This document shows positions 2,400 to 21,600 of a DNA stretch of 64,000 bases, in pieces. The stretch is from a virus. Where the stretch lies: the IMG/VR virus record IMGVR_UViG_3300032271_000867, positions 1 to 64,000 of that record; one strand, written 5' to 3'. The notes below the pieces were generated by a model. It saw only the letters and a program-made list of their open reading frames with translations. It was not told where the DNA came from and did not search any database. The position numbers and the translations under genes were made by a program. The first letter of the stretch is position 1; every line of letters begins with the position of its first letter.

Positions 2400-3677
2400 A
2401 TGAAAACCACAACACCCAACTCTTTCACTATCTACACAAGTGATGTTCCCCAAACAACTTTTGAGCGACAAGTTTTTGTTGCCAAGTTTGGTGAGATTAC
2501 AAAAATCGCTTCTCGATTGCTTGATCGCAACAGCAATAAGGCGGTTCGCAAAAGCTGGAACTTTGAATCGGCTGCGACTTTTGTTGCTTCGATCTCTGAA
2601 GCCGAACAACTAAAAACAGAACCAATCCAAAGCACTATGCGGGCTAACTTTGTGCAGAACTTCATAGTAGACAACAACCTAAACGCTGCCGGGCTAAAGG
2701 CTGTCAGAGAACTTATGGAAGCAAAACCTATGCTGATTAGCGTTTCTCTAAAAAAAGTTTTGTCTAGCCTTTTCGAGCAAACAAACCTTGAGTTTGAAAC
2801 CGCTGAAATAGCAACACCTGCGCCGGACTTCGCAAACGCTTGGGCGACGCTTTCGATTCCAAAACCTGAGGCACTAACCAATGGCGTTTACTACCCTCGA
2901 ATCGTTGAGAACAAGACGGAACAAGAATGGTATGAAACAGCGCTGGAGTGCAAAATGGCTGTGGCGATTTTTGGCGAAGCTGGAACAGGTAAAACTTCGA
3001 GTGCCGAGGCCGAAGCTGCAAGGCGTAAAGTGCCTTTTGTAGTTATGGAGTGCAACACAATGATCACAGACGAAAAGACCCAGGGGCGCTATGTTCCAAC
3101 GGGTCGTGGCAACGAACTTGAATGGCGTTACAGCGAGTTTGCAACGGCACTAGGGCAAGAATCGGTTATTTTGCTCAACGAAGCCAGTCGTATGTCACCA
3201 AAGGCAAACGCCTTGTTTATGCGTGTGCTTGCCGAGGGTGAGTTGATTATTGACACGCACAAAAACGAGAAAATCACTAAGCACCCACGCTGTTTGATTA
3301 TTGCCGATGCCAACCAAAACTATCGTGGCACGATGAACCCAGACCAAGCGTTCCTAGACCGCTTGCTAGTCAAGCTGGAGTTTCAGTATGACGAGGCGAT
3401 TGAAGCAAAGTTTATCCCTAGCCCTAGTCTGTTAGAGCTGGCTAAAGAGATGCGCCGAGCTGCTGCAACAAACGGCAAGTTTTCGACACCGGTATCAACT
3501 CGCTTGCTAAAAACTTTTGTGTCTATCGCACAGAAACTTAGTTTTAGAGCGGCTGTCTACAACTTCACAAACAACTTCGATCTTGACGAGCGTTCAAGTC
3601 TAAAAATGATGTTTTCAACCTACGCCGAAGCTATTGCTTCTGAACTAGGTGCTGAAACAGAGGATTTTGAGCTATAA
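2400..3677 (+). CDS. MoxR/CbbQ/CobS-type AAA+ ATPase
   Basis: Walker A GEAGTGKT, Walker B variant ILLNE, ANQNYRGT and AFLDR (sensor/Arg finger), STRLL lid motif. Confidence 0.9.
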   Translation: MKTTTPNSFTIYTSDVPQTTFERQVFVAKFGEITKIASRLLDRNSNKAVRKSWNFESAATFVASISEAEQLKTEPIQSTMRANFVQNFIVDNNLNAAGLKAVRELMEAKPMLISVSLKKVLSSLFEQTNLEFETAEIATPAPDFANAWATLSIPKPEALTNGVYYPRIVENKTEQEWYETALECKMAVAIFGEAGTGKTSSAEAEAARRKVPFVVMECNTMITDEKTQGRYVPTGRGNELEWRYSEFATALGQESVILLNEASRMSPKANALFMRVLAEGELIIDTHKNEKITKHPRCLIIADANQNYRGTMNPDQAFLDRLLVKLEFQYDEAIEAKFIPSPSLLELAKEMRRAAATNGKFSTPVSTRLLKTFVSIAQKLSFRAAVYNFTNNFDLDERSSLKMMFSTYAEAIASELGAETEDFEL

Positions 3678-3678
3678 A

Positions 3679-5607
3679 ATGCAACGGATTTCTTTAGATG
3701 ATTTAGACGCAACCGATTTTTTTGATGCAGATGATTTTGACACATTACCTAGCGGTTGGCGTGGTTGCGTTGGTGGCCCGAATCTTTGGTCAGAACAAGA
3801 GCAGCTTCAGCGTGAGATGTTGTCAAAAATGGTGGCTGATGCTGAACGCTACGCAAGCGTTATTTCAAAGCGTGATGTATCTGCACACCTAATCAACAAT
3901 GGTTCTGTTCCTGCTTTCAGCTCGGCGAGCTCGATTACTTTTGTTGCTGAAAAAATCGGACTTTTGACTGAACCCCACGAAGTCGCTGGAGTAAAAGGAC
4001 TAACGCTGCACGAAGTGGCGCACATTATGTTTACCCCACGATCGCAGACACCTTTTGCTCAATGGGCGATCAACAATGCAAAACTTGCCTATCGAGTAGC
4101 GGAAGATGCTCGTATCGAACACTTGTTTTTGGGTCGTTTTGGTAGTTTTGTTTCGCCCTGGCTTATTGCTAGTTGTTTGCGATTTTTGTTGGCAGATGAA
4201 ACCCACATCGTCGTTGCTTACCCTGTGATCGTTGGTCGCAAATACTTGCCTTTGGAAGTTAGACAAGCGGTCAGAAATGCCTACTTGTTTCCGGCAGATG
4301 CTTCGGCTATTCAGTCGCTAATCAACCGCTATCGAGTGCTTGTTTTTGACTCGCAAGAAGCGGTTGATGAAGCTAAGTTGGTTCTTGCAGAACTACAAGT
4401 GCTGCTTGAAAAGTTGCCGTTGATGCAAGACCCAAACGGCCACGAGCAAAGAAGCGATAGCGAACTTGAAACAAGTATCAGCAGACCATTAGCAGCAGAC
4501 GAGCAAAACAAGGCTAAAGCAACGGCTGATAAACGAGGGTTCAAAGATACAACCGACATAAGCGAACAAACTCAAGTTGATAAAGATACAAAACAAAAAC
4601 TTGAGCAGTATGGTCAAAAAGCAGAGTTATTGCCGCCTAATCAAGAGGGTGATGATCCTGCAAATGGCACAGGCGAGAATGACAGCAACAGCGAGGAATC
4701 AAGCAGCGTTAGTGGTCTTACTAAAAATGGTGATGCTAAAAATACTCTTGATCCTGCTGTAAAAGCGGAGTTTGCCAAGTTGTTTGACAGGATTCTTGAC
4801 GAAAATCGAGCTGAAATCGCAAGCGACATAAAGTCGTGGGCAAAGCAGCAAGAGATTCAAGGCGGTATTGTCAAACCTATTGAGAAACACTATTACAGCG
4901 ATAGCGTTCTTGACAACACTACTCACCTAATGGCTAAAAAGTTTGGGCAGCAACTTCAGGAGCTACGCTTACAACACGAACCGGGTTGGGATAAACGAGT
5001 GTCTAGCGGTCGAATCAACGCTGGCCGTTTATTGCGTGGCGCTGATCTTGATGAAGCCTTTGATCGTTTTGACGAGGGCAGAGATGATGCAACCGAGATC
5101 GAGTGCGTTATCTTGTTAGACAAATCGGGTTCTATGGGTGGCGCAAATGCTGATGCAGCTTATCGTGCTATGTATGCTGTCAAAAAAGGACTGCAAGCGT
5201 TACAAGCAAATACTACTGTTGTTCTGTTTGACCATTACACATACCTGCTTTACGAGGCTAAAGACAAAGTAAACAACAGCGTTCGAGATGCTGGTGCAAG
5301 CGGTGGAACAGATGCCACAGGAGCAGTAAATCACGCTCGCAGTCTACTTGCTTCTAGCAGTAAAGCTGTAAAAATGCTGCTAATGATCACAGACGGCGAA
5401 TGGGGTCAGACACCACGCATTGACTTAGAGATTATGGAGTTGCGAAACTCGGGCGTTCTAACGGCGTTCTGTATGATTGGCGATAGCTTTTCAGACAGCA
5501 CTCACAACGCTGAAATCTCTTTGCAAATAAAATCAGCTAAGGACATACTTGCATTAGCAAAGGGTCTAGTGAAGCTGGCTATCAAACGACAACTAACAAA
5601 ATACTAA
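3679..5607 (+). CDS. CobT-like protein: N-terminal HExxH metallopeptidase-like domain, acidic linker, C-terminal VWA domain
   Basis: LHEVAH...EDARIE, MIDAS DKSGSM, GGT, ITDG. Directly follows the AAA+ gene. Confidence 0.85.
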   Translation: MQRISLDDLDATDFFDADDFDTLPSGWRGCVGGPNLWSEQEQLQREMLSKMVADAERYASVISKRDVSAHLINNGSVPAFSSASSITFVAEKIGLLTEPHEVAGVKGLTLHEVAHIMFTPRSQTPFAQWAINNAKLAYRVAEDARIEHLFLGRFGSFVSPWLIASCLRFLLADETHIVVAYPVIVGRKYLPLEVRQAVRNAYLFPADASAIQSLINRYRVLVFDSQEAVDEAKLVLAELQVLLEKLPLMQDPNGHEQRSDSELETSISRPLAADEQNKAKATADKRGFKDTTDISEQTQVDKDTKQKLEQYGQKAELLPPNQEGDDPANGTGENDSNSEESSSVSGLTKNGDAKNTLDPAVKAEFAKLFDRILDENRAEIASDIKSWAKQQEIQGGIVKPIEKHYYSDSVLDNTTHLMAKKFGQQLQELRLQHEPGWDKRVSSGRINAGRLLRGADLDEAFDRFDEGRDDATEIECVILLDKSGSMGGANADAAYRAMYAVKKGLQALQANTTVVLFDHYTYLLYEAKDKVNNSVRDAGASGGTDATGAVNHARSLLASSSKAVKMLLMITDGEWGQTPRIDLEIMELRNSGVLTAFCMIGDSFSDSTHNAEISLQIKSAKDILALAKGLVKLAIKRQLTKY

Positions 5608-5613
5608 AAACCT

Positions 5614-5650
5614 AAAGTGCCTAGTGTCGTAATGGCACTAGGCACTTTTT
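5614..5650 (+). terminator. intrinsic terminator
   Basis: AAAGTGCCTAGTG...CACTAGGCACTTT stem followed by a T run. Confidence 0.85.
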
Positions 5651-5672
5651 TATCAAAAGGAGAAAATAAAAA

Positions 5673-6374
5673 ATGCTAAATCAAGCGTTTCTAAAAGAAC
5701 TAAGTGCATTAGAAAAAACTAACAAAACCGCTGTTTGGGCAGTAGTTAGGTCAGACCAAGCGTGGCGGGTAAACTCAAATGACGCAAAACACAAACAAGT
5801 AAAAGAGCAGCTATGCGAGTTGGCGGTGCTAGTGGACACAATAAAGCGTGATCCTGCTTATCACGCAATCAGAGACTGGAGCAGCAACCCTGATCCTGCA
5901 CACGCCGCTGGTAACGCAAAGTCTTTTGGCTATCTATTCAAGAAAAAAATAAATGGTGTAGATTGCTACCGAGTAGTGCCGGTGCGTGACATTGTGGGTC
6001 AGGAAAGCGATCTTGTTGCTTGGTGGGCAGATACAGCGCTAAGAGATACTTTGGAATCAAGACGCAAAATGAAAATCGAAGTTGCCAGGGTTGATGCCCA
6101 AGCTGAAGTTGAAAACATAAAGAAAAAGATTGAGGCAAACATCAGAGAAATGACCGACAATCTAGTAGACGGATTGGGTGAAAAGTTGATTATCAAACCA
6201 GATGTTAGTATGACTTTTGAAAGCAAAGACACCGCTGATAAAAAAGATGTTGAAATCCAGGTTATCTTTAGTGATCCGAAATGTGACATTACATTGAGCT
6301 ACGAGCAATACCAGCAAATGCTTGAAGTTTTGATGAGATACAAAGACCTAACAGAGCTTGGGTTAGTGGCCTAG
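5673..6374 (+). CDS. hypothetical protein with coiled-coil segment
   Basis: AAGGAG RBS, 233-aa ORF. Confidence 0.75.
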   Translation: MLNQAFLKELSALEKTNKTAVWAVVRSDQAWRVNSNDAKHKQVKEQLCELAVLVDTIKRDPAYHAIRDWSSNPDPAHAAGNAKSFGYLFKKKINGVDCYRVVPVRDIVGQESDLVAWWADTALRDTLESRRKMKIEVARVDAQAEVENIKKKIEANIREMTDNLVDGLGEKLIIKPDVSMTFESKDTADKKDVEIQVIFSDPKCDITLSYEQYQQMLEVLMRYKDLTELGLVA

Positions 6375-6400
6375 AGAGGCCGTAGAAGCCCGATAAGAAG

Positions 6401-6432
6401 CCCTTAGCAGCAAGTCTGCTAAGGGTTTTTTA
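6401..6432 (+). terminator. intrinsic terminator
   Basis: CCCTTAGCAG-caagt-CTGCTAAGGG followed by a T run. Confidence 0.85.
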
Positions 6433-6516
6433 TTGCCTGAAATCGGCGCACAGGAAGCTGATTACAGCGACATACCACAAGAATAAAAAAATCTTTGTAA
6501 AGACACGCCAAGATGC

Positions 6517-6546
6517 TTGACAAATACTTACCGAGGTAAGTATTCT
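6517..6546 (+). promoter_or_regulatory. sigmaA-type promoter with overlapping 10-2-10 palindrome, probably leaderless
   Basis: TTGACA (6517) - 18 nt - TATTCT (6541). Palindrome AATACTTACC-GA-GGTAAGTATT at 6523-6544. ATG at 6553 with no RBS. Confidence 0.7.
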
Positions 6547-6552
6547 ATTCGT

Positions 6553-7044
6553 ATGCAAACATTCCTCACGATCGCAAGCACAGACTATGCAGCAACGGCC
6601 AGGACACTAGACAACAAACGCTTGAATAAGCAAGCTCTGGAAGCGTGGCAAATCCTAATGAACCTAACCAAGCTAGACCCGGCTGGTGATTACCGAGAAC
6701 CTAGAGGCTGGAGCAATCACCCGGCCGTCAAGATGTGGAGAGGTAGCGAGGGTAAGTTACTTGAATACATTTTGGCTATGGTCAAAGAGTGGCAAGATCG
6801 TGGCTATAACAGCACCATAGGAGATAAGGCCATAGCAACCTACGAGAGAGCTGTTCAGCTAGGGCTAGTGGGGCAAGAAGCTGACGAGCTGCCAAAATGG
6901 CAAAGCAACCAAGACAAGTTTGAAGCTATTACAAAGACACACCGACAAGCACTTTTAGTCAAAGACTATGAGTGGTATTCGCAGTTTGTTTGGGAAGAAG
7001 ATCTCGGATACAAGCAAGATTCTTATGAGTATGTTTGGGCATAA
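6553..7044 (+). CDS. pyrimidine-dimer DNA glycosylase-like protein (MSMEG_6728 / endonuclease V family)
   Basis: MQTFL...LDNKRLNKQALEAWQIL...GWSNHPAVKMWRG...HRQALL signature. Confidence 0.85.
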   Translation: MQTFLTIASTDYAATARTLDNKRLNKQALEAWQILMNLTKLDPAGDYREPRGWSNHPAVKMWRGSEGKLLEYILAMVKEWQDRGYNSTIGDKAIATYERAVQLGLVGQEADELPKWQSNQDKFEAITKTHRQALLVKDYEWYSQFVWEEDLGYKQDSYEYVWA

Positions 7045-7050
7045 AAGCAA

Positions 7051-7523
7051 AGCACTACCAAAAGACAACCAAAAATGTCACAGCAGTATGACAAGATAAA
7101 CCAATAGAAAGGAAGCACAAAATGCTAACAGTAGAAGAATACATAAAACAACTAGAAGCCCTACCAAAAGACGAGGTGATTCTTGTTCCAATGATTTGGA
7201 CAAAAGCCATAGCAGAAGAAGAACTACTAAATGCAACAGAACTAGAAGTTGTTCTTACAAATGAACAATGGGAAAAAGCAGTAGAGATCTATGAAGCAAA
7301 TTACTATGCTGATTACGAGTTTATGGTTGAAGCTGTTCAGCAAGTCATTGGTGCAAAATACAACAGTGAAACATACGAGTGGAAAATAGGAGAATAAAAA
7401 TGATCGAACTAACATTTGATAGCTGGGAAGATTTTGACAAAGCAATACCAAAAGTGGTTGCTTTAGCAGAAGCCTTATCAGAAGCCCTACCAAAAGACAA
7501 AGAAATAGAAGCCCTACCAAAAG
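7051..7523 (+). repeat. dispersed direct repeat AGAAGCCCTACCAAAAG(AC)
   Basis: Copies at 7154, 7480 and 7507, plus a 1-mismatch partial copy at 7051. Confidence 0.8.
7122..7397 (+). CDS. hypothetical acidic protein
   Basis: AAAGGA RBS, 91-aa ORF. Confidence 0.75.
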   Translation: MLTVEEYIKQLEALPKDEVILVPMIWTKAIAEEELLNATELEVVLTNEQWEKAVEIYEANYYADYEFMVEAVQQVIGAKYNSETYEWKIGE

Positions 7524-7540
7524 GATCACTAGATAACTAA
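7400..7540 (+). CDS. 46-aa hypothetical protein (MIELTFDSWEDFDKAIPKVVALAEALSEALPKDKEIEALPKGSLDN)
   Basis: AGGAG RBS, manual translation, below the track cutoff. Confidence 0.65.
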   Translation: MIELTFDSWEDFDKAIPKVVALAEALSEALPKDKEIEALPKGSLDN

Positions 7541-7695
7541 TGAACACAGAACTAAACAAAGATCAGATTGCTGAACTAGTAGCAGTAGGTATCAAGCACG
7601 AACGAGAGCGTATCATCAAGTTGATTCAAGAGTGGATCAACAATGACGATGCAGACTTCCAAGAAATGTTTGCTCAAGTAAAGAAAGGAGCATAA
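7540..7695 (+). CDS. 51-aa ERERII-motif protein
   Basis: TAATG coupling; MNTELNKDQIAELVAVGIKHERERIIKLIQEW... Confidence 0.7.
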   Translation: MNTELNKDQIAELVAVGIKHERERIIKLIQEWINNDDADFQEMFAQVKKGA

Positions 7696-8509: not shown

Positions 8510-8817
8510 TGAATCTTCTTATTGATATTTTAGATAGTGAAAAAGCACTGTGCACCCAAGAAAATCCTGATGTTTTCTTTGAAGAAGAAGATGTTGAAAC
8601 TACTCTTTATGCAAAACTTGTTTGTTCAGGATGTTCTCTTGTAGAAACCTGTATTGACAAGGCTATGCAAATTGATGATACTCAAGGAGTATGGGGAGGT
8701 AGCACTACACAGGAAAGATTATTGTTTAGAAAAAAACCTGAATACAAGGAGCTTCATATAGTTATGCTTCGTAAGTATGAGGGCGAAAAAAGTGTTCTAA
8801 ACATTATTCGCAAATAG
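8509..8817 (+). CDS. whiB: WhiB-family Fe-S transcription factor
   Basis: C...PDVFF...CSGCSLVETC...GVWGG. Confidence 0.88.
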   Translation: MNLLIDILDSEKALCTQENPDVFFEEEDVETTLYAKLVCSGCSLVETCIDKAMQIDDTQGVWGGSTTQERLLFRKKPEYKELHIVMLRKYEGEKSVLNIIRK

Positions 8818-8850
8818 AAAAAGCCCCTAGCCATAAACTAGGGGCTTTTT
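8818..8850. terminator. bidirectional intrinsic terminator between convergent arms
   Basis: AAAAAGCCCCTAG-ccataaa-CTAGGGGCTTTTT. Confidence 0.9.
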
Positions 8851-8858
8851 ACTATCTG

Positions 8859-10895
8859 TTACTGATTGTCTTTGATTAGTTTAATTTCACAAGCGTCTGT
8901 AGTGCAATAGGCCTCGCCAACAGCGTCAATAGCCAATCCAGCATATACACCGGCAAAATCAATCGGGAATAGCTGATTGCCATACTCGGTGTATTCTTCT
9001 TCAGTGATTTGTGTATAAGGCATCTGTGGGTAAACAGTATTGCCCATTGGCAAGAATGATACAGTCTTTAGCTGACCATCGTACATATGGAGCACAGTTC
9101 CAACCGCATTTGCTTCTTGAACAGCATCAAAAGTTACTGTTACTGATACAGAGTTGTCTGACCAGTAACGCTGTGCAGTTGCTGCTAGTGCAATTTTTTC
9201 GTAAATACTGACTTCTTTTTCAGATCTACTTGCACCACTTTTGATAGGGAAAAATACAACAGAGGTAGTTTCAGGAGATTCTGAAGCAGGTTCAACACGA
9301 TACTGGGCCATCTTGAAAAGAGGAAGCATAGGATCGTTATTACCAAAACGAATTGCACGAAGGAAATGCTTGCCACCAGCAGTCCAGTGAACACCAGGAC
9401 TTTCTCCAGCAAGAATAGACACAGTTCCTGAAGGTTTTACAGTAGTCATTTTGATAGATTCACGAACACCAAGCCACTCGGAATAGGTTGTGTCATAAGC
9501 TCTAACTACAGCATAACCTTCATCCATCCACTGACGAAGCACTGGTAGGCCTTTTTCATCTGCAAAGTTTGCTACACCTGAAACTGAAGTTCCAATACGG
9601 CGGTTGCGTTGCATAATAGCGTTGGTTTCTTCCCAGTGAGTTGGGAGCAGTGTTACAGTCTTGGCATATAGGTAGGCAAATTTTAGTGTGCGTTTAAAAT
9701 CTTCCAATGATTCGTGACGATTCAAGTAAGTTTCTACTAATGTACACATCTCAAATGATTCTAGCGATTGTTCAGCACAAGGATTGTAACCAACTACTCG
9801 CCAGTCTTTATTGTTTGGAGCATCTGCCAAACGACTATAAGCACGAGAAGTATCCATCCAAATAACACCAGGTTCACCATTACGAACGATACCATCAACA
9901 ATAGGTTCAAAATCAGTTCCAACTGTTACTTCGACAGAGTTGTTTGACATCCAACCCCATCCCGGTGTTTCAGGATCATAGGAGTTACGTTCTGGAAACT
10001 TTTCTGCATTTTTTAGATTTAAGAAGTTTTCATCATCAATACGACCAATCAACAACTCTGCTGAACGACGCACGTTACCTGAAACTACACAACGACCAAT
10101 CAAGTTACCAATATCGGCAATATCTACACCAGTAAGTAGTTGGCCTTTGCGTCCACGAAAAATATCACGAATTTTTGCGTGTAATGCAAACAATGGATCT
10201 GGGCCACTTGCTGTTCCACCAAAAGTAGCAATTGGAGTTCCATATGGCCTAATCTGGTCATAGTTAAATTCCCAAATAGGTTGATCTGGCTTTAGATAGG
10301 AGTTGATTAGTGCAACAGTTGATTCTTGCCAACCTTCACGAGTGTCAGGAATGTCATAGTTTTGAAAACCGTGAGGTTCATAAATCTCAAATCCTTTGTC
10401 TGCACCTTTATCGTCAAAACCTACGCCAACACCCAACATTGATGCTTCCATCAAAAATGCAAATGGTTTACCTGGATTTTGCTTAGTCATTTCATTAGTA
10501 GAAACAAACGCACAGTTCTGCAAAGCAGCTGAGTTTTTTTGAGTATTTACAATGTCTGTACCCATCACCCACAAACCACGACCCGGTGGTGTCCACTTTA
10601 AATTAAACAAACGATCAAATGCTTCTTTTGCACTTGCTGCTGCTTTTGCGTCTGACCAAGGCAATCGGTTTTGTTTAGCGTGGTCTTTTTGTAGTGAATA
10701 CATTCCATTAATAACACGTGCGCAAACATCTACCCAAGTTTCTTTAGTTCCATCTTCTTTTAGACGGGAATATGTGCGAAGAAAAGTAATTTCACCAACT
10801 GAGTTGCCTGCGACATCTGAATAACCAAATGGAGGTTTCTTATCCTTATATCCTGAAACAAAATCATCAGAAAGTTTAAAGGAAAAATTAGTCAT
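8859..10895 (-). CDS. nrdJ: class II adenosylcobalamin-dependent ribonucleotide reductase (monomeric RTPR type)
   Basis: TFLRTYSR, PPGRGLW, LQNCAF, GNVRRSA, NPCAEQ, TTVKPSGTVS, C-terminal CTTDAC. Confidence 0.95.
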   Translation of the reverse strand: MTNFSFKLSDDFVSGYKDKKPPFGYSDVAGNSVGEITFLRTYSRLKEDGTKETWVDVCARVINGMYSLQKDHAKQNRLPWSDAKAAASAKEAFDRLFNLKWTPPGRGLWVMGTDIVNTQKNSAALQNCAFVSTNEMTKQNPGKPFAFLMEASMLGVGVGFDDKGADKGFEIYEPHGFQNYDIPDTREGWQESTVALINSYLKPDQPIWEFNYDQIRPYGTPIATFGGTASGPDPLFALHAKIRDIFRGRKGQLLTGVDIADIGNLIGRCVVSGNVRRSAELLIGRIDDENFLNLKNAEKFPERNSYDPETPGWGWMSNNSVEVTVGTDFEPIVDGIVRNGEPGVIWMDTSRAYSRLADAPNNKDWRVVGYNPCAEQSLESFEMCTLVETYLNRHESLEDFKRTLKFAYLYAKTVTLLPTHWEETNAIMQRNRRIGTSVSGVANFADEKGLPVLRQWMDEGYAVVRAYDTTYSEWLGVRESIKMTTVKPSGTVSILAGESPGVHWTAGGKHFLRAIRFGNNDPMLPLFKMAQYRVEPASESPETTSVVFFPIKSGASRSEKEVSIYEKIALAATAQRYWSDNSVSVTVTFDAVQEANAVGTVLHMYDGQLKTVSFLPMGNTVYPQMPYTQITEEEYTEYGNQLFPIDFAGVYAGLAIDAVGEAYCTTDACEIKLIKDNQ

Positions 10896-10925: not shown

Positions 10926-10951
10926 TATGCCCAGTATTTCTACTGGGCATA
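10926..10951. promoter_or_regulatory. hairpin in the nrdJ 5' region
   Basis: TATGCCCAGTA-tttc-TACTGGGCATA, perfect 11-bp stem. Confidence 0.55.
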
Positions 10952-11113: not shown

Positions 11114-12601
11114 TTAGTCAATAGTTTTTTTGATAATCATTGTTGTTTGATCTTCAGAAATGGGTTGTTGTGCGTCTTTTATTGCCTGCACTCTATCCCC
11201 AAATAATCTAGTTAAAACACCTTGACTTGCATCTCTTTGTGCAGTAATTTGAATAAACTCTTTTTGTTCATCTAATGACTTTAATTTCTCTAACATTTTA
11301 AAATATCTGTCCATTTCTTGTGACAAATTTGGATCTGCGTATCCACCATTTAATTCTTCTGAATACCGCATAAATGCTACTCTTTGGGCTTGCATTTCTA
11401 GCAAAGTAGTATTTAATGCACGTAGTTGTTCTGGTGTTTTTACTTCTACTGGAAGGTTAAACGCACAAGTATTATTTTCTTTAAATGCGGGGCAGTTTGA
11501 TGCAATAAAGCACGTATTACACTGCCTTAATGTGACATTATTTGAGTTTACAATTGGGATATCTTTTAATACATCTTGACCATTTTCATTTTCTACAATG
11601 GTCTTCATTTGATACCCAAAAACAGGCATAGAAGTCATTTCTTGAGGGTCTCTTTGAACCACTTCAGTGCGTTCAACTTTCCGCATCTCTGACCCACTGT
11701 TATTAGAACCACCTATGCCAGTTTCCATCAAACTGGTGTATAGGGTATCATCACTGTTATCAGATACTTTGTCACCTTTTATGAGTTTTAGATCTGGTTT
11801 ATCTTTATCCATTTTTGCTTCTAACTGTAGGTATGACCAAATAGCAACTTTTGTTGCTTCTAGGGTGTCATCATTAATAAATTTTTGAAAATCTAATCCT
11901 GCTTTAGTTACTATATTTTGATAACGTTTACGGGCTTGATCTTTCATTGACTTTGGATATCGGACTAACTTAGTGCCATCCCAAATAATAGTTTCACCTC
12001 TACGCATTGGTGATAACCAACTAAGTGTGCTTGTAGTACTAAACGGTATTTGTCGTAAATTATCTGGTTTTACACTTGCTAAGGCGTGAAATTTAACGTC
12101 ATATTTTCTAGATAAATTTTGAGTAATACCGGCTAGTGCTAGTGATGATTCAATTGCATTATTTGGAATTGCAATATTAGAGTATTCCTCTGACCATTTG
12201 TGCAGTAACATTGTGCCGTAAATATCGTGCCATACTACCCACATCTTTGGGTCATCTTGAAACGCTGCACGTTGCTGCATAATCCAGGGTAATCCCAATG
12301 ATTGTGAATCAAACTCTACCCAACCTTCAATACGATCATAGTTTATTGCAATAAACTCTTCGTAATCTGCTGCGTATTCTTCTAATTCTCTTTGTGATAA
12401 TCCTGCTTTATCTGCTTGTAGTGCACCAGAATCTACCCAAATTTTAAAATTATCTTCAAAATGTTCTGAAATGTAATATTCTTTAGTCTTTGGTAGGCCA
12501 CGTTTTTTTAATCCCCAATAACTAACCATTACATTAGTTGCATTACTTTTGTGCAATAATAACCTATTACTAGGTATCTCTGTTCCACCAAATATAATCA
12601 C
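11114..12601 (-). CDS. TGT/DpdA-like TIM-barrel protein fused to a C-terminal Cys4 and helical domain
   Basis: VMVSY, IWVDSGA, VVWH, IAI, FHALA, IPFSTTSTLSW resemble the order of motifs in phage tRNA-guanine-transglycosylase-like proteins. C-terminal CNTCFIASNC...C. Confidence 0.6.
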   Translation of the reverse strand: MIIFGGTEIPSNRLLLHKSNATNVMVSYWGLKKRGLPKTKEYYISEHFEDNFKIWVDSGALQADKAGLSQRELEEYAADYEEFIAINYDRIEGWVEFDSQSLGLPWIMQQRAAFQDDPKMWVVWHDIYGTMLLHKWSEEYSNIAIPNNAIESSLALAGITQNLSRKYDVKFHALASVKPDNLRQIPFSTTSTLSWLSPMRRGETIIWDGTKLVRYPKSMKDQARKRYQNIVTKAGLDFQKFINDDTLEATKVAIWSYLQLEAKMDKDKPDLKLIKGDKVSDNSDDTLYTSLMETGIGGSNNSGSEMRKVERTEVVQRDPQEMTSMPVFGYQMKTIVENENGQDVLKDIPIVNSNNVTLRQCNTCFIASNCPAFKENNTCAFNLPVEVKTPEQLRALNTTLLEMQAQRVAFMRYSEELNGGYADPNLSQEMDRYFKMLEKLKSLDEQKEFIQITAQRDASQGVLTRLFGDRVQAIKDAQQPISEDQTTMIIKKTID

Positions 12602-13083
12602 TCGAACGACACTCCTTCGCTACGAGTTAATCTTGCATCTTGTGTTCTTGCAATATTTTGACGCTCAATTGCTTGTTCAATATCATTCCATGCCCTTAGT
12701 TTTTTAGGTGCATCTGGCCTAAACTCTGGCCTAGTGTATGATGGAACACCAAACATAATTGATGGAATACCTTGCTCAAATGCAAATGCCCATAACTTTG
12801 GATTATTAGTGATGAGTAGGTCTACTCTACCTAAACTTCTAGCGACCATTACTTGGCGTTCTGCTAGTTCTTCGCCTTCTAGGCGGTATGATGAGTCAAT
12901 AATTCCATCATAATCAACAATTTTGTTGATATCTAACCACTGCTCTAATTGTTGCCGGGGATCTGATGACATTAAAAAAATTTGATTAAATGCAGTTAAT
13001 GTTCCTATTAAAACAATACCAGTGGCAATTGGATCTTCATTTGATCCTTTTAGTACTCCGTTTATATCTACTAATATTTTCAT
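12598..13083 (-). CDS. HAD-superfamily phosphatase-like protein
   Basis: N-terminal ILVDINGVL (DxDGV variant), LMSS motif II. Confidence 0.65.
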   Translation of the reverse strand: MKILVDINGVLKGSNEDPIATGIVLIGTLTAFNQIFLMSSDPRQQLEQWLDINKIVDYDGIIDSSYRLEGEELAERQVMVARSLGRVDLLITNNPKLWAFAFEQGIPSIMFGVPSYTRPEFRPDAPKKLRAWNDIEQAIERQNIARTQDARLTRSEGVSFE

Positions 13084-13096
13084 TTGTTATTAGCCT

Positions 13097-13192
13097 TTAA
13101 TCCTCATAACAATCGCATTTGCAGTTATCTTCTACGCAAATTCCGTGGTATAGTTCATGGCCACATTTGTGGCAAGTGTCACTAAATGACAT
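13097..13192 (-). CDS. 31-aa Cys/His-rich microprotein (MSFSDTCHKCGHELYHGICVEDNCKCDCYED)
   Basis: Start overlaps the stop of the NTase gene (TAATG). 6 Cys and 3 His. Confidence 0.6.
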   Translation of the reverse strand: MSFSDTCHKCGHELYHGICVEDNCKCDCYED

Positions 13193-14079
13193 TAATTATT
13201 CCTATAAGTTGCTGCTCGTCTAATTAGAGTATTTGTATCTGGCAAATTTACTCCATAATTTGGCATTTTATTATCAAAATCTTTTTTGATATTCTTTAAT
13301 AAATCAATAGTTCCTGAGCTTTTACCTGCTTGCCAACGATAATTGTGGAAATCAGAATAACCTTCACCCGTTGGTGAAAATGCTAGGCTACGATTATTAT
13401 GAATCTCATCATATAATGCGGACGCTTGTTGTCCTGCTAAATTTAATTTAGTTTCTGCGTTACGTTTATTTGCATCATTTCTTGACAAACTAATGTCTTG
13501 AAGTGCTTGGCTGTAACGTGCTGATAGTTGCGTTGCAACTGAATTATCGGATGACGATACTGATTCCCATGCCGGGTTACTTGGTGCAGCTCTATTTGGA
13601 TCTGGGTGAACAGTCCATTCATCATATTTTAAATCATATGCTGCATATGGCTTAATGTTACGAATATCTGTTCCAGTTGGGTTTACATAAAATGTGAGTT
13701 CAAACCCATTCCAGTTGGATGTTTGTGGCTGTAGTTCATCTCTAAAATCTGAATTGATTTGTTGACTAATTTCTGCATCAGACAATCCACGATATTCTGG
13801 GTTTGCTTTGCGAAATTGTTCAAAATTTACTCCAACTAAACAATCTAAGTCTTTTGGAGTTCTGTTGGCTGACCATTGATAAGATACCCCACTACCTGCT
13901 AACCAAGGATGTGCCCATAAATCTGCATGACGATAATGTTTATCTAAAAACCCATACAGCAAACTATTGATTCCAGTTTTGATCCCAGAATGCAAAGACC
14001 TACCCTGGAACAACACAGGATCCAGGGTAGGTGCAGGTAGGCTAAAATACGAAGTGGAGTAGCTACCTAAATTATTCAT
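13192..14079 (-). CDS. Pol-beta superfamily nucleotidyltransferase
   Basis: LAGSGVSYQW...KDLDCLV (GS...DxD), FELTFYVN, YAAYDL. Confidence 0.75.
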   Translation of the reverse strand: MNNLGSYSTSYFSLPAPTLDPVLFQGRSLHSGIKTGINSLLYGFLDKHYRHADLWAHPWLAGSGVSYQWSANRTPKDLDCLVGVNFEQFRKANPEYRGLSDAEISQQINSDFRDELQPQTSNWNGFELTFYVNPTGTDIRNIKPYAAYDLKYDEWTVHPDPNRAAPSNPAWESVSSSDNSVATQLSARYSQALQDISLSRNDANKRNAETKLNLAGQQASALYDEIHNNRSLAFSPTGEGYSDFHNYRWQAGKSSGTIDLLKNIKKDFDNKMPNYGVNLPDTNTLIRRAATYRNN

Positions 14080-14088
14080 AGGAATAGT

Positions 14089-14403
14089 TTAGGCGGTTTC
14101 AGCACTGCTTTCTGGCTGAATTCCACGCTCTTTTAGGGCATCTGAAACAACACTTGAAGTTGATGGCTGTTGCTGAGAAGCCATTACTTGCAACCAAGTG
14201 CCTACAATACGATCAGTTAATTGTTGGTTTTTAATTTCAGTAATAATATCTTGAGATACTTTGTAAACATCGTTTACATTTGCATTTCTAGACCCTTTTA
14301 GTGGGGTGTCTAGCTGCTCTAGTTCTGCTCGAAAGGTACCGTCTGTGTGAATAACAATTGCAATAACTGTTTCAATTTCTTTTTCGTTTTCGTTATTTTC
14401 CAT
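14089..14403 (-). CDS. hypothetical protein
   Basis: 104-aa ORF in operon. Confidence 0.7.
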   Translation of the reverse strand: MENNENEKEIETVIAIVIHTDGTFRAELEQLDTPLKGSRNANVNDVYKVSQDIITEIKNQQLTDRIVGTWLQVMASQQQPSTSSVVSDALKERGIQPESSAETA

Positions 14404-14412
14404 TTTTCTTTC

Positions 14413-14973
14413 CTAGTTATACATGCCACGCATAGCACGTTGTTTTGTTACTATTACACTTTGCATTGGACAAAAATTACATAGATAAATTTTTGGTAAT
14501 GCTGCATCTTTGGGTGCTTCTAATCCAGCAGATTTGCGTTCTTTTGCAGTTTTTGGAAGTAATCGCTTACTTTCAGTTCTGTAATCTGCGCAATTATCTT
14601 CTGGCCTTAGATGATAAGTATAGCACGACATTGCATCTTCTGCAAATTGCATTTTAGTACTATAAAAATCGCCTTCTTCAGTCATTGCATCAAGGCCGGT
14701 TACTCCTGTGCCTTTTAGTTGATTAATGATTTCTTTACGATTGCTAGTATTTGCCCATACTTTTACAGGCAAAATAAACATTTTACCTTGATGCCTTAAA
14801 CCTGAAGGAAACTCATGTTTTTCTACTGTCATTTCAAGTAGAATATCTGTTTCAGAAGGCCCATCATGTGGAGGTAATTCATCGATGCTATTGCATACAA
14901 AACACAGTAATAGCCTAATTACCGGTCCGCTGTGTTCAAATTCACGTTTACCAATTAATGGTGCTTCCGCCAT
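14413..14973 (-). CDS. hypothetical Cys/His metal-binding protein
   Basis: CFVC, H...H, C..YH..C, LCNFCP. Confidence 0.7.
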   Translation of the reverse strand: MAEAPLIGKREFEHSGPVIRLLLCFVCNSIDELPPHDGPSETDILLEMTVEKHEFPSGLRHQGKMFILPVKVWANTSNRKEIINQLKGTGVTGLDAMTEEGDFYSTKMQFAEDAMSCYTYHLRPEDNCADYRTESKRLLPKTAKERKSAGLEAPKDAALPKIYLCNFCPMQSVIVTKQRAMRGMYN

Positions 14974-15002
14974 TTAGTAGTCCTTATTATTATTATTTGT
15001 TA

Positions 15003-15215
15003 TTATTTTCCTGGGTTAACTGATGCTGTTACTGGGTAATCGCTAGTAATAAACCCATATCCATAAAATGGGTGTAGTGACTGACGATTGTCTACGGTCT
15101 TTTCGTGACCATTAAAGTCTAGTACTTCAGTGTCTGGGCGTACTTTACGGTATTTGCCGTCAGTAGCACCTTCATCAAGGCTTGCGTTCATTGAACGACT
15201 AGTATTTACTGCCAT
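15003..15215 (-). CDS. hypothetical protein
   Basis: 70-aa ORF with AAGGA RBS. Confidence 0.65.
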   Translation of the reverse strand: MAVNTSRSMNASLDEGATDGKYRKVRPDTEVLDFNGHEKTVDNRQSLHPFYGYGFITSDYPVTASVNPGK

Positions 15216-15217
15216 GG

Positions 15218-15403
15218 TTATTTCCTTCTTGACAATTTATTTGTATAACAAGGGTAACATAATCCTTTGTAATACAAATATTCTACTGGATTAGTAATAA
15301 TTCCGCATTGTGGACATGGATGTGATCCACTATTATTTGCGATATTTTGTGCAATTTGCCAGGCTTGTAACTCTAGCGTTTCTCCGCCATCACCATCAAA
15401 CAT
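15218..15403 (-). CDS. small zinc-ribbon protein
   Basis: CPQC...CYPC. Confidence 0.65.
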   Translation of the reverse strand: MFDGDGGETLELQAWQIAQNIANNSGSHPCPQCGIITNPVEYLYYKGLCYPCYTNKLSRRK

Positions 15404-15765
15404 TAGTTAGCTCCTAGATCATTTCTACTACTACCAGAATAACCTGCTGGGCTACCGCTGTACCAACTAACTCGTGGTTCTGTGTAAACTCTATCTACTG
15501 AAACTATATCATCAATAGTAGGTTGTAATCGTTCTCCCCACCCAAATCGTGGTGGAAATAAACGAATTTGAGGAAGTGGTGGTCTAACCATTTCTTGTAA
15601 CTGAGCACCGGGAATAGTTGCTGCCATCAACGCTTGTTGGGTTAAACGTTCCATATTAGTTGCCCATGGGCCGGTGTATGATTGTGGTGGTAAACCTGTA
15701 GCATTAAATCCATTACTACGCCAAGGTTTTGTGTAATCATAGTTACCATCAACAGCAGCTCTCAC
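15403..15765 (-). CDS. Pro/Gly-rich hypothetical protein
   Basis: GTG start, in operon. Confidence 0.65.
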   Translation of the reverse strand: MRAAVDGNYDYTKPWRSNGFNATGLPPQSYTGPWATNMERLTQQALMAATIPGAQLQEMVRPPLPQIRLFPPRFGWGERLQPTIDDIVSVDRVYTEPRVSWYSGSPAGYSGSSRNDLGAN

Positions 15766-15766
15766 G

Positions 15767-16300
15767 TTATCTCCAAACTGGTTTTAGATAAGAAAGTGCG
15801 TTTGCTCTTTGCACGTTAATAGTAGTGGGTGAATTTGCAACAGTGTTTGCTTTACCATCATTTACTAAATGAGGTGCTGGTACTAATGCAATATTTAATC
15901 CTGCTTTAGGTGTCATATACACACGAACACCATCATCATTTATTAATTTAGCTTTTTCTTGTCGTCTAATACCCATCATCGCATTAAACTCTGGTGACCA
16001 GTAATATGCATTTGGCTCAATACGTTCACCTTTGTGAACACCACGTTGATATGATTTTTGATTTACACGATTTTTAATGGAATCTAATAAACGGTCATCT
16101 CTACGAGATCTAATTGTTCCAAGATAGCCGTCAGGATATTCTGCAGATGGAACACGTCCTGTACCAATACGGATAGCATCCAAATCACCACGAGCAACTG
16201 GTACTCCTTGGCCACCTTGGTTATTATACCCATAAAACCCATTACCACCAAGAGATTGCCAGTTTTGGTTGGGAGTAAAGTTATTTACTGCACCTGCCAT
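15767..16300 (-). CDS. Gly/Asn/Arg-rich hypothetical protein
   Basis: 177-aa ORF; PSAEYPDGYLGTIRSRRDDRLL, YQRGVHKGERI. Confidence 0.7.
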   Translation of the reverse strand: MAGAVNNFTPNQNWQSLGGNGFYGYNNQGGQGVPVARGDLDAIRIGTGRVPSAEYPDGYLGTIRSRRDDRLLDSIKNRVNQKSYQRGVHKGERIEPNAYYWSPEFNAMMGIRRQEKAKLINDDGVRVYMTPKAGLNIALVPAPHLVNDGKANTVANSPTTINVQRANALSYLKPVWR

Positions 16301-16309
16301 TTTATTGCC

Positions 16310-16597
16310 TTAACCTTGTGGTTGTTCAGAATCTGGAACACCAATTGCTGATGGAGGTGCCATTCTTATAGTACCTCCACCAAACTGCATGAATGAACCT
16401 ACTTGAGCACCGGCAGTATTTAGCGTGTTTCTCCAAGTCATGGCTTTGCCGGGACTTGTGCGGTTTACTTCACTATATGGGTCAACTTCTGTAGTTGGGC
16501 TATTAGTGCGATTAAGCGCAAACTCTGATCCTGGATCAGGATTAGGTGTGCCATATTTACTGGCTGATTGACTATCAGTAAGTAGGTTTCCACTCAT
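16310..16597 (-). CDS. Pro/Ser/Thr-rich hypothetical protein
   Basis: 95-aa ORF in operon. Confidence 0.6.
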   Translation of the reverse strand: MSGNLLTDSQSASKYGTPNPDPGSEFALNRTNSPTTEVDPYSEVNRTSPGKAMTWRNTLNTAGAQVGSFMQFGGGTIRMAPPSAIGVPDSEQPQG

Positions 16598-16610
16598 AGG
16601 TGTTACCTAC

Positions 16611-17048
16611 TTAAAACATGCTTGCTTGTTCACCTGCATAGAAGTTAGGGGCCTGACGACCCATAACACTAGGAACAATTTTGGCATTTGCCATTGTTGC
16701 ACCTGCAGATGGGTCAATACTTGCACCTAAACCAGCTTTTACAGTGTATGCTGCCCCTAAACGTTCTCCACCAACATTTAGTACTGGGGTACGTCTAGGT
16801 CCTTTACTACCTGGGTCAACAGGATCTCCAGATTGAGTGTTCTTTTTTGGCATTAAATTACCGGCAAAAGTTGAAGGAGTAAGTGCACCTAGTGGAATAC
16901 GTGCACTACCTGCACTAATTGCGTTTTGGTAGGCTTCATCTGAAGTTTGGTGATTACGAGTCATGCTTTTACCTGCTGCTTCTAGTGAGTTTGATGGGGT
17001 ACCGTTACGACGTCTCATGCCGTGACCAATACTATATGGTGTTGCCAT
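16611..17048 (-). CDS. Gly/Ala/Pro-rich hypothetical protein
   Basis: AAGGAG RBS before MATPYSIG at 17048; upstream -10-like TACTCT at 17072-17077. Confidence 0.7.
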   Translation of the reverse strand: MATPYSIGHGMRRRNGTPSNSLEAAGKSMTRNHQTSDEAYQNAISAGSARIPLGALTPSTFAGNLMPKKNTQSGDPVDPGSKGPRRTPVLNVGGERLGAAYTVKAGLGASIDPSAGATMANAKIVPSVMGRQAPNFYAGEQASMF

Positions 17049-17085
17049 TTTGGCTCCTTTATCTCTATATAAGAGTAAATCTTTT

Positions 17086-17382
17086 TTAGCTTGCAGACAC
17101 TGCAAACACAATTGCAGAAATTTCACCATCTCGTGATTCAATAGTTGCAAATCCAACTTTAAATACTAAATCCATTCCACGAGGTGCTACATACCCACGA
17201 GAAATTGCCAATGCTTTTACTGCTTGGTTTACTGCTCCTGCACCAACTGCTCGTAGTTTTACTTGTTTATTATCATAAATTGCATGTGCAATTGCTGATG
17301 CTACGGATTGGGGGTTTGAACTTGCCGATACTCGTAAAAATGGTTCTTCATTTGAGGATGGCAAAATGTTTTCTTCGGTCAT
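17086..17382 (-). CDS. spoVS: SpoVS-family (Alba-fold) nucleic-acid-binding protein
   Basis: LRVSASSNPQSVASAIA...AVGAGAVNQAVKALAISRGYVAPRGMDL matches the SpoVS consensus. Confidence 0.92.
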   Translation of the reverse strand: MTEENILPSSNEEPFLRVSASSNPQSVASAIAHAIYDNKQVKLRAVGAGAVNQAVKALAISRGYVAPRGMDLVFKVGFATIESRDGEISAIVFAVSAS

Positions 17383-21268: not shown

Positions 21269-21600
21269 TTATTCCTTATGTTTAGTGTTAGTACAAATTC
21301 TTCTAAAGACATTTTGCCTTTTTTGGTTTTTTGCCATTTTCTTATTAAAGCATTTCTTTCTCTGTGGGACATTCCTCCCCAAATTCCATGCTGTGTGTCA
21401 GTTTCAATTGCTTCCCATAAACAAATATTTTTTACAGGACATGGGGTTGTGCCATTTTCTCCAAAACAATACTTTTTAGCTTGTGTTGCTATTTTTTTAT
21501 ATAAAGACTTATCTCTTGGTGGAAAAAATAGCTCAGTGTCTGCTCCTTCACAAGCAGCTTTGTGCCACCACCTCAGATCGTCATCAGAGTCTTTGTTCAT
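21265..21600 (-). CDS. whiB: WhiB-family transcription factor
   Basis: WWHKAACEG..TELFFP...AKKYC...CPVKNIC...GIWGGMSHRER. Confidence 0.92.
   Translation of the reverse strand: MNKDSDDDLRWWHKAACEGADTELFFPPRDKSLYKKIATQAKKYCFGENGTTPCPVKNICLWEAIETDTQHGIWGGMSHRERNALIRKWQKTKKGKMSLEEFVLTLNIRNK

Follow-up and report, generated by a model that had tools for sequence, protein, structure and literature searches.

The described systems closest to the locus reported here are the tRNA-guanine transglycosylases (TGTs) and the DpdA proteins, which share one barrel fold. In bacterial DpdA, Asp95 is the general acid/base and Asp256 the nucleophile; both are essential, and reading of the base falls to Asp130 and His181. 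Replacement of Asp256 by Ala kills the activity, and three Asp residues are reported as invariant across TGT and DpdA, as far as the available part of that report goes (PMC10164549). DpdA1, the form found in Enterobacteria phage 9g and Pseudomonas phage Iggy, was shown to insert preQ0 (PMC6884629, PMC10484667, both available in part). Surveys of phage DpdA name the subfamilies DpdA1-4 and singleton DpdAs of uncertain function; the family described below is not named in the available parts of these surveys (PMC6884629, PMC10516641). That family is represented by a 495-aa protein encoded in the first 64,000 nucleotides of a viral genome, IMG/VR record IMGVR_UViG_3300032271_000867. This 64-kb stretch is called the window; the whole record has 88,412 bp and is ~92% complete by estimate. 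The protein has a TGT/DpdA-type barrel without the nucleophile Asp and is encoded in a conserved gene module.

An initial annotation of the window described four tightly coupled genes, for a nucleotidyltransferase (NTase), a Cys-rich microprotein, a protein like the haloacid dehalogenases (HADs) and the barrel protein. All four were found in place on the minus strand, and coupled. The module is wider than these four genes: the unit begins further upstream, at a gene for a 186-aa protein called up186. In the order of transcription its parts are as follows.

14413-14973, minus strand: up186, a 186-aa Cys/His-rich protein, constant upstream member of the module
14089-14403, minus strand: small protein of 104 aa encoded between the up186 and NTase-like genes, not constant in the module
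13192-14079, minus strand: 295-aa NTase-like protein of the Pol-beta fold, with an invariant signature and an AlphaFold2 (AF2) model
13097-13192, minus strand: 31-aa peptide with six Cys, a subclade-specific insert
12598-13083, minus strand: 161-aa protein, HAD-like but degenerate in its catalytic motifs; its gene is translationally coupled to that of the barrel
11114-12601, minus strand: 495-aa barrel protein with a GTG start, made of a TGT/DpdA-type barrel and a Cys4/helical domain
11792-12601, minus strand: barrel domain of that protein, residues 1-270, a TGT/DpdA-type (beta-alpha)8 barrel without the nucleophile Asp
11612-11791, minus strand: its linker, residues 271-330, low in complexity and predicted to be disordered
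11114-11611, minus strand: its C-terminal domain, residues 331-495 and the stop codon, a Cys4 cluster followed by helices

The stop of the 295-aa gene and the start of the 31-aa peptide have one base in common, a spacer of 13 nt lies ahead of the 161-aa gene, and the stop of the 161-aa gene overlaps the start of the 495-aa gene by 4 nt (GTGA). The motifs quoted in the initial annotation are all present: G62-S63...D77-L78-D79 in the NTase-like protein, D6-I-N-G-V-L in the HAD-like protein, and D57-S-G-A, V-V-W124-H, F-H172-A-L and P186-F...S-W195 in the barrel protein.

The 495-aa protein belongs to a large family of at least 839 clusters at 50% identity (phmmer against the library, E <=0.001), nearly all of them ~480-510 aa long. 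A word-indexed search found 1643 proteins among 8000 scored candidates. The AF2 model, built from 92 diverse sequences, has a mean predicted local distance difference test score (pLDDT) of 82, with a block at residues 1-260 that reaches 94-98. The linker scores below 50 at residues 270-314 and 322-330, columns that are variable in the family alignment A1, and the C-terminal domain is modelled poorly (pLDDT 43-94). A Foldseek search of the PDB with this model placed the Z. mobilis TGT on top (E 1.2e-5); PrpB barrels and the Cap10-CdnD complex ranked lower. In VIA-align the barrel superimposes on the archaeosine TGT (ArcTGT) 1iq8_A with Z 17.7 and a root-mean-square deviation (rmsd) of 3.5 over 256 aligned residues, and on bacterial DpdA 7ui4 with Z 16.9 and rmsd 3.6 over 257. 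The best 50 rows are all TGT, ArcTGT, DpdA or QTRT1 (Z 17.7-16.6), to be read against a background in which 796 of 1000 chains reach Z >=8, TIM barrels being common. At the sequence level, hhalign aligned A1 with the DpdA of Pseudomonas phage Iggy at 97.8% probability (E 7.8e-13, 214 columns), and the PHROGs match of the 495-aa protein is phrog_887, 'queuine tRNA-ribosyltransferase' (E 1.8e-57). The 495-aa protein is thus a TGT/DpdA-like barrel on the basis of the fold match, the Iggy DpdA profile match and its relatives in Bacillus phage BCD7 (gp21) and Bacteroides phage BS162P1. The initial annotation had proposed this from motif order, and the structural and profile matches bear it out.

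The C-terminal domain carries four Cys residues, C361, C364, C370 and C379, which are invariant in A1 and present in 141-144 of 143-144 aligned representatives. The only PHROG that matches this domain is again phrog_887. Searched alone against phages by tblastn, it found the same family and one unannotated faecal phage record, nothing else, and in the ESM Atlas its best score was an uninformative 0.76. For the module proteins in general, sequence-only library searches gave nothing useful besides phrog_887, and the sequence and profile searches of the PDB gave chance-level rows only, except for one weak HAD row.

The central feature of the family is the loss of the catalytic nucleophile. The nucleophile Asp of DpdA1, BCD7 gp21 and the BS162P1 barrel lies opposite Ser191 of the window protein, in the MAFFT and the hhalign alignments alike. 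Conservation was counted in 150 cluster representatives (50% identity) and 120 close relatives aligned to the family hidden Markov model (HMM). Asp is found at the Ser191 column in 0 of the 143 representatives aligned there and in 0 of the 120 close relatives (0/263 together); the residues that occur are S, A, T, G, M, I, L and Y. The exchange of guanine for 7-deazaguanines, which the initial annotation cited for DpdA and TGT enzymes, can therefore not simply be assumed for this protein.

Other parts of the pocket are kept. The window protein has D57-S-G, which aligns with the general acid Asp (Asp95 of bacterial DpdA); across the family position 57 is acidic in 101 of 135 aligned sequences (D 82, E 19), the rest including Y (16), H (8) and N (3). 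D98 is kept in 109 of 136 sequences and H172 in 111 of 142. These two align with the base-reading Asp and His of DpdA1 and would be the counterparts of Asp130 and His181 in bacterial DpdA. The family also has constants of its own: E8, R34, E96, W124, W195, G202, T204 and W207 in addition to the Cys4 cluster. Position 203, within the motif G-[E/D]-T, is an acid in 140 of 145 representatives (E 80, D 60) and E or D in all 120 close relatives.

Four metagenomic members of the family (P0273, P0313, P0334 and P0318) contain inteins with LAGLIDADG domains. The boundaries, taken from BLASTP segments and a reading of the junction sequences, lie directly before C364 in two proteins, at C379 in one and between D203 and T204 in one. 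Inteins usually occupy functionally critical motifs, so their positions here suggest a functional importance of both the Cys cluster and G-[E/D]-T. Two further members, P0245 and P0253, are fused at their N-terminus to an HNH endonuclease.

The neighbors of the barrel gene are conserved with it. A set of 114 loci was scanned with HMMs of four families; it contains 96 distinct barrel genes, 78 of them with at least 4 kb of upstream sequence. Of these 78 distinct loci, 77 carry up186, 77 carry the HAD-like gene and 69 carry the NTase-like gene; the module genes are collinear on one strand in 77 of 77. This linkage is far beyond chance. The one locus that lacks up186 and the HAD-like gene has the barrel gene only as a C-terminal fragment. 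Nine loci lack the NTase-like gene, among them L013, from a close relative of the phage, and most of the prophage-type loci; missing in 9 of 78 loci, the NTase is not obligatory. The junction between the HAD-like and barrel genes measures -8 to +2 nt in 76 of 96 loci, duplicates included. Conservation of the neighborhood had been named as a check in the initial annotation, and the linkage is kept in distant relatives including cultured Streptomyces phages. Two of the outcomes that would have refuted the initial annotation could be examined by computation, a 495-aa protein without a TGT-type barrel and genes unlinked in relatives, and neither was observed. In Streptomyces phage BRock the module is formed by gp42 (up186), gp39 (NTase), gp38 (HAD-like) and gp36 (barrel), with an extra gene, gp37. 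This extra gene of BRock-type phages encodes a 388-aa protein with no family match and lies between the HAD-like and barrel genes (4781-5947 in locus L001).

The upstream partner up186 is 34% identical to BRock gp42. In an alignment of 41 sequences (A4), five Cys residues never vary (C24, C117, C128, C165 and C168), and conservation reaches 90% or more at C27, H53, H61 and H121. It is probably a zinc protein; no Pfam, PHROG, NCBIfam or PDB-profile match was found for it. The two small genes are less constant. The 104-aa protein was found by BLAST in 45 of 102 loci and has no family match, the best being PIN_6 at a non-significant E of 0.089. The 31-aa peptide has the pattern C-x2-C-x8-C-x4-C-x-C-x-C, and its 11 distinct homologues, in 16 of 102 loci by BLAST, keep all six Cys. 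The space separating the NTase-like gene from the HAD-like gene does not exceed 29 nt in 51 of 89 loci, too little to hold the peptide. The Cys microprotein of the initial annotation is therefore real, six Cys included, but it is an insert of one subclade and not a general member of the module.

The module also occurs in bacterial genomes. When prokaryotes were scanned with one genome per species, the barrel family turned up in 13 bacterial genomes, twelve of them from Actinomycetota and one a metagenome-assembled genome of Gemmatimonadales; the Actinomycetota carriers are Streptomyces, Kitasatospora, Nonomuraea, Terracoccus, Saccharothrix and Herbidospora. The module holds in 12 of these 13 loci, and the 13th is a C-terminal fragment. 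Chromosomal copies in Streptomyces, Kitasatospora, Saccharothrix and Terracoccus (L107, L109-L112, L114, L115) have up186, the HAD-like gene and the barrel gene without the NTase-like gene. The chromosomal copies are probably prophage. A cytochrome P450 gene lies 2.2 kb downstream of the module in L110.

The 295-aa protein is, by its sequence signature, a Pol-beta-type NTase, as the initial annotation had read it. The GS, DxD and E positions of that signature (G62, S63, D77, D79 and E127) do not vary in any of the 50 diverse sequences aligned. The family is again a large one, with 1367 relatives among 2230 scored candidates, and the window protein is 37% identical to BRock gp39 (E 3e-57). The AF2 model (pLDDT 87.9) consists of an alpha/beta N-terminal domain at ~20-152 and a helical bundle at ~166-276. 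With modest Z-scores the N-terminal domain (20-152) matches minimal NTases: 1no5_B at 6.6 (97 aligned), 1ylq_A at 6.4 and the MNT antitoxin 8xeo_A at 6.1. The VIA-align rows for the whole model are mostly unspecific helical bundles over residues 166-276, and the best 50 contain no aminoglycoside NTase and no cGAS/DncV-like nucleotidyltransferase (CD-NTase). Foldseek against the PDB gave nothing at E <=0.001 and many NTases among the weak rows, CD-NTases at E 0.07-0.3 included. A BFVD search returned uncharacterised phage proteins, one annotated with an NTase domain. Pfam has no match for the 295-aa protein, and its only PHROG match is phrog_11610, of unknown function (E 0.0053).

For the 161-aa protein, 320 relatives were found among 365 candidates, and it shares 26% identity with BRock gp38 (E 8e-20). 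In an alignment of 46 sequences (A3) only G9, P114 and W132 are invariant. The initial annotation had called it a HAD protein from the motif DINGVL. That motif is present in the window, but the family has no conserved motif-I Asp: the first position (D6 in the window's D6-I-N8) varies among D, E, A, S, F and V, and is followed by N, D, E or S at the other. Pfam HAD families are matched by none of the 46 members. The PDB profile search yielded a single weak HAD match (3u26_A, E 0.085), and in the ESM Atlas NIF/HAD clusters appeared from rank 14 onward, at 0.90. The HAD fold is a weak assignment from these matches. A nucleotide phosphatase step, also proposed in the initial annotation, is unsupported given the degenerate motif I and the missing Pfam HAD match. 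Prediction of a complex of the NTase-like and HAD-like proteins with the barrel as partner (three chains) scored 0.00 twice, without controls, and is evidence neither way.

Without the nucleophile the barrel would be unable to carry out the known ping-pong exchange. The reading preferred here is that the system is directed at DNA and addresses a guanine-type base by a route other than 7-deazaguanine exchange. The barrel would still bind DNA and take a guanine-type base into its pocket. Its part would be that of a non-canonical enzyme, hydrolytic or other, or of the module's recognition subunit, with the zinc protein up186 and the HAD-like protein as obligatory partners. The NTase, where present, would add further chemistry, for instance by nucleotidylating the exposed site, a DNA end or a partner. 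During replication the module would probably serve to mark or protect the phage DNA or to damage host DNA, and not to insert preQ0. Behind this reading stand the descent from DpdA, the lost nucleophile beside a kept pocket, the missing supply of 7-deazaguanine in the phage and most hosts sampled, the strong conservation, and the fixed partners within a block of DNA metabolism. It is put forward tentatively, with a chance somewhat short of even.

Several observations weigh against it. Neither Pfam, including the TGT family PF01702, nor NCBIfam matches the 495-aa protein. A profile search of the PDB with A1 found no TGT or DpdA chain by sequence, and hhalign of A1 against a single E. coli TGT sequence gave a non-significant 0.4% probability. 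The tie to TGT proper rests on the fold and on DpdA1 as a bridge. DNA binding by the barrel is inferred from its ancestry, and the roles given to the zinc, HAD-like and NTase proteins are guesses from linkage. The general acid at position 57 is not universal, with Y, H and N in the numbers given above. The residues at the mouth of the barrel (E8, R34, E96, W124, W195 and G202-[E/D]203-T204), together with the intein in G-[E/D]-T, are as compatible with an active enzyme as with a protein that only binds, if not more so. The host genomes that bear on 7-deazaguanine supply are a sample of five, of unknown completeness.

The same residues lend themselves to a bolder proposal, in which the barrel works as an enzyme whose active site has been re-invented from the G-[E/D]-T acid, E8, E96, D98 and H172. 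Together with the zinc protein, a HAD-like scaffold and the NTase it would install or remove a guanine-type DNA base, with no covalent Asp intermediate and no 7-deazaguanine; in this specific form the proposal is doubtful.

Of the rival explanations the one that survives best, and that also counts against the preferred reading, is active DNA base exchange through a relocated acid, G-[E/D]203-T, with a base other than preQ0 that is made or activated by the NTase and its partners. The acid at position 203 is nearly constant in the representatives and wholly so in the close relatives, an intein sits exactly between D203 and T204, residues where the barrel strands end show strong conservation, the catalytic triad of the NTase is invariant, and the adjoining ribonucleotide reductase (RNR) gene provides a setting of nucleotide metabolism. 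It is harder to reconcile with the module that no gene for synthesis of an unusual base was recognised there, that the NTase is missing in nine loci, that the HAD-like protein has no conserved catalytic residues, and that position 57 is non-acidic in about a quarter of the representatives. We regard base exchange through a relocated acid as unlikely, though still a serious contender.

Less probable than this is a barrel aimed at a protein or a small molecule, either in the manner of Cap10 or through an NTase that makes or intercepts a signalling nucleotide in counter-defence. Cap10 is a precedent for a TGT fold paired with an NTase, and the available part of that report describes a deazaguanylated nucleotidyltransferase (10.1101/2025.04.06.647259). 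The Cap10-CdnD chain 9ntn_B is among the Foldseek matches of the barrel protein (E 9.3e-5), and the CD-NTases in the weak rows of the 295-aa model point the same way. Against it, no QueC-like Cap9 is present, and Cap10 keeps its D248, by the same partial source, where the window family has lost the nucleophile. The 295-aa protein begins MNNLGSYS, without the M(G/S)G(G/S)GG tail, its N-terminal domain is closest to minimal MNT-type NTases rather than CD-NTases, and the gene is missing from the nine loci already mentioned.

A slim chance is given to a non-enzymatic factor for DNA recognition or of a packaging type, in which the Cys4/helical tail would be the working part and the barrel a relic. 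The canonical catalytic residues are indeed lost, and in BS162P1 the tail is a separate gene with faint 'terminase small subunit' PHROG hints (E 0.048 and 0.09). Those hints are not significant and are absent for the window protein's own tail; a packaging role read from them was rejected, as they concern the BS162P1 homologue only. The barrel, moreover, is the best-conserved and best-modelled part of the protein and carries the intein at G-[E/D]-T, and the gene lies within the replication block, the large terminase gene being ~59 kb away.

A canonical DpdA that inserts a host-derived 7-deazaguanine (preQ0 or preQ1) into the phage DNA is very improbable. The names in the databases favor it: besides the title of phrog_887, BRock gp36 and GiJojo gp181 stand in RefSeq/GenBank as queuine tRNA-ribosyltransferase or dpdA-like, and phages with singleton DpdAs that rely on the host are known, according to the available part of one survey (PMC6884629). 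The nucleophile speaks against it, absent from every aligned member and, in the part of the bacterial DpdA report cited above (PMC10164549), indispensable for activity. The supply of the modified base is also missing. As the initial annotation had noted for the window, folE, queC, queD and queE are absent, and this holds for the whole record: QueC, PTPS/QueD, GTP cyclohydrolase I (folE), radical SAM (queE) and Pfam TGT gave no match in the full 88,412 bp, where control genomes matched. Among the five module-carrying actinobacterial genomes, Pfam TGT was found in none and full-length QueC in one, with partial matches of 70 columns inside 565-712-aa frames in two more; four of the five are therefore without full QueC.

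A tRNA-directed repair or modification system is hardly to be expected: TGT-family enzymes act on tRNA, the record carries tRNA-Asn(GTT), of a queuosine-family anticodon, and tRNA-Leu(TAA), and BRock has 29 tRNA genes (PMC7453282), but the nearest characterised sequence relatives are DNA enzymes (DpdA1) and not TGT, the nucleophile is lost, the degenerate HAD-like protein leaves a 3'-phosphatase step unsupported, and the module and the 15-34 kb of neighbors scanned yielded no recognisable RNA ligase or kinase. For the tRNA-repair and immune-signal ideas of the initial annotation no specific support was found.

The surroundings of the module are those of phage DNA replication. The block upstream contains an initiator, a DnaB-like helicase, a second helicase, SSB, DNA polymerase, a UvsX-like recombinase, an exonuclease and RuvC, and the module stands at the end of this replication and recombination block. 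The large terminase, portal and major head genes are found at 66.5-73 kb of the record. On the downstream side the following features were recorded.

8859-10895, minus strand: class II (B12-dependent) RNR, a conserved downstream neighbor in the freshwater clade only
10926-10951, no strand assigned: hairpin with an 11-bp stem in the 218-nt gap between the barrel and RNR genes, from the terminator scan
8818-8850, no strand assigned: hairpin with a 13-bp stem and A and T runs on its sides, where the minus-strand block meets plus-strand genes

The position of the operon upstream of an RNR gene, as initially described, is correct. The identity of that gene follows from Pfam RNR_Alpha (4.8e-30), RNR-II_ins_dom (6.2e-12) and phrog_367 (2.2e-136). 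It was found by BLAST in 73 of 102 loci and is absent downstream of the barrel in BRock-type loci, prophage loci being outside this search. The hairpin at 8818-8850 is likely a bidirectional terminator closing the unit, judged from its stem and flanking runs. The terminator scan as a whole was at chance level (8 found, 6.5 expected), as was the promoter scan (26 found, 28.9 expected). A search of sequencing runs matched no RNA run; the only match was the probable source sample.

Two WhiB-family genes lie in the window, at 21346-21570 on the minus strand and 8539-8718 on the plus strand (Pfam Whib E 4.5e-19 and 9.8e-18). Both these genes and the hosts in which the relatives occur point to an actinobacterium as the host of this phage. 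Eight small-to-medium open reading frames (61-181 aa), rich in G, N, P and S and without a library match, fill 14973-17156 on the minus strand between the SpoVS/RuvC genes and the module. Against the main direction of transcription runs an overlapping pair, an AAA_5 (MoxR-like) ATPase at 2400-3677 and a VWA-domain protein at 3649-5607, both on the plus strand. A homologue of pyrimidine-dimer DNA glycosylase is encoded at 6517-7044 on the plus strand (Pfam Pyr_excise 9.3e-19). Beyond the window the record has genes for tRNA-Leu(TAA) and tRNA-Asn(GTT), at 82089-82170 and 82789-82862 of the record. Asn(GUU) is one of the anticodon families that bear queuosine in queuosine-making organisms.

The barrel family is spread through abundant freshwater actinophages, Streptomyces phages and actinobacterial prophages, and under its database label the members would be counted in surveys as 7-deazaguanine DNA modifiers. 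Should the activity be new, the module would represent a new phage mechanism of DNA modification or of action against the host, or else the first phage pseudoenzyme of the TGT fold with fixed partners. If the re-invented active site were true, many actinobacterial phages would carry an undescribed DNA modification or attack on host DNA. Cultured relatives are available in BRock, GiJojo, pSt2308, LuckySocke and Alone3, which makes the question testable at the bench. The initial annotation did not recognise the gene combination as a described pathway. None was found in the literature searched, but the barrel as such is already annotated in PHROGs, RefSeq and GenBank. The search found nothing on a nucleophile-less DpdA family or on the combination; supplementary DpdA tables of the surveys (PMC6884629, PMC10516641), which perhaps list BRock or BCD7, were outside its scope. 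The BRock genome paper is silent on the module genes (PMC7453282).

Among the known systems, type IV CBASS (cyclic oligonucleotide-based antiphage signalling system) resembles the module in that a TGT fold, in Cap10-CdnD (9ntn), is encoded beside an NTase. It differs in being a bacterial defence, and its QueC-like Cap9, nucleophile D248 and Gly-rich N-terminal tail of the CD-NTase, as given in the available part of the source, all have no equivalent here. A TGT-fold protein without catalysis also has a precedent in QTRT2, which is functional as a subunit (10.1101/2025.04.06.647259, available in part). QTRT2 works beside its catalytic TGT paralogue QTRT1 in the eukaryotic TGT, whereas no catalytic TGT or DpdA was found in the phage record or the five host genomes.

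With bacterial DpdA 7ui4, TGT, ArcTGT and QTRT1 the window barrel shares the fold; the nucleophile is missing here, and there is no Pfam TGT or sequence-profile match. Bacterial DpdA needs the ParB-like ATPase DpdB. The DpdA1 proteins of phages 9g and Iggy are homologous to the window barrel and have the DSG, H-G/A and S-W motifs in common with it. Unlike the window protein they are only 312-317 aa long, have no Cys4 tail, keep the Asp opposite S191 and have preQ0 synthesis genes alongside. In Bacteroides phage BS162P1 (L105) the two halves of the protein are separate adjacent genes, the barrel at 6013-6840 and the Cys4/helical tail at 6890-7645, and this barrel too keeps the Asp.

The nearest annotated relative is gp21 of Bacillus phage BCD7 (YP_007005872, annotated as queuine tRNA-ribosyltransferase), which falls in the same PHROG, phrog_887. 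It differs from the window protein in having Asp at the nucleophile column, in its 757-aa form and in its longer linker. Its gene stands directly after folE, queC, queE and queD, unlike the module described here. No BLASTP homologue of the NTase-like or HAD-like protein is encoded beside it; the 'nucleotidyltransferase' products gp15 and gp20 of BCD7 were considered as homologues of these two and rejected for want of BLASTP homology. BCD7 gp21 has the same architecture as the window protein, with both the barrel (23% identity, E 2e-12) and the Cys4/helical tail (24% identity, E 2e-13), and by tblastn it reaches the DpdA genes of 9g and Iggy. From alignment and model, the 495-aa protein thus appears to be derived from a long-form phage DpdA of the BCD7 gp21 type.

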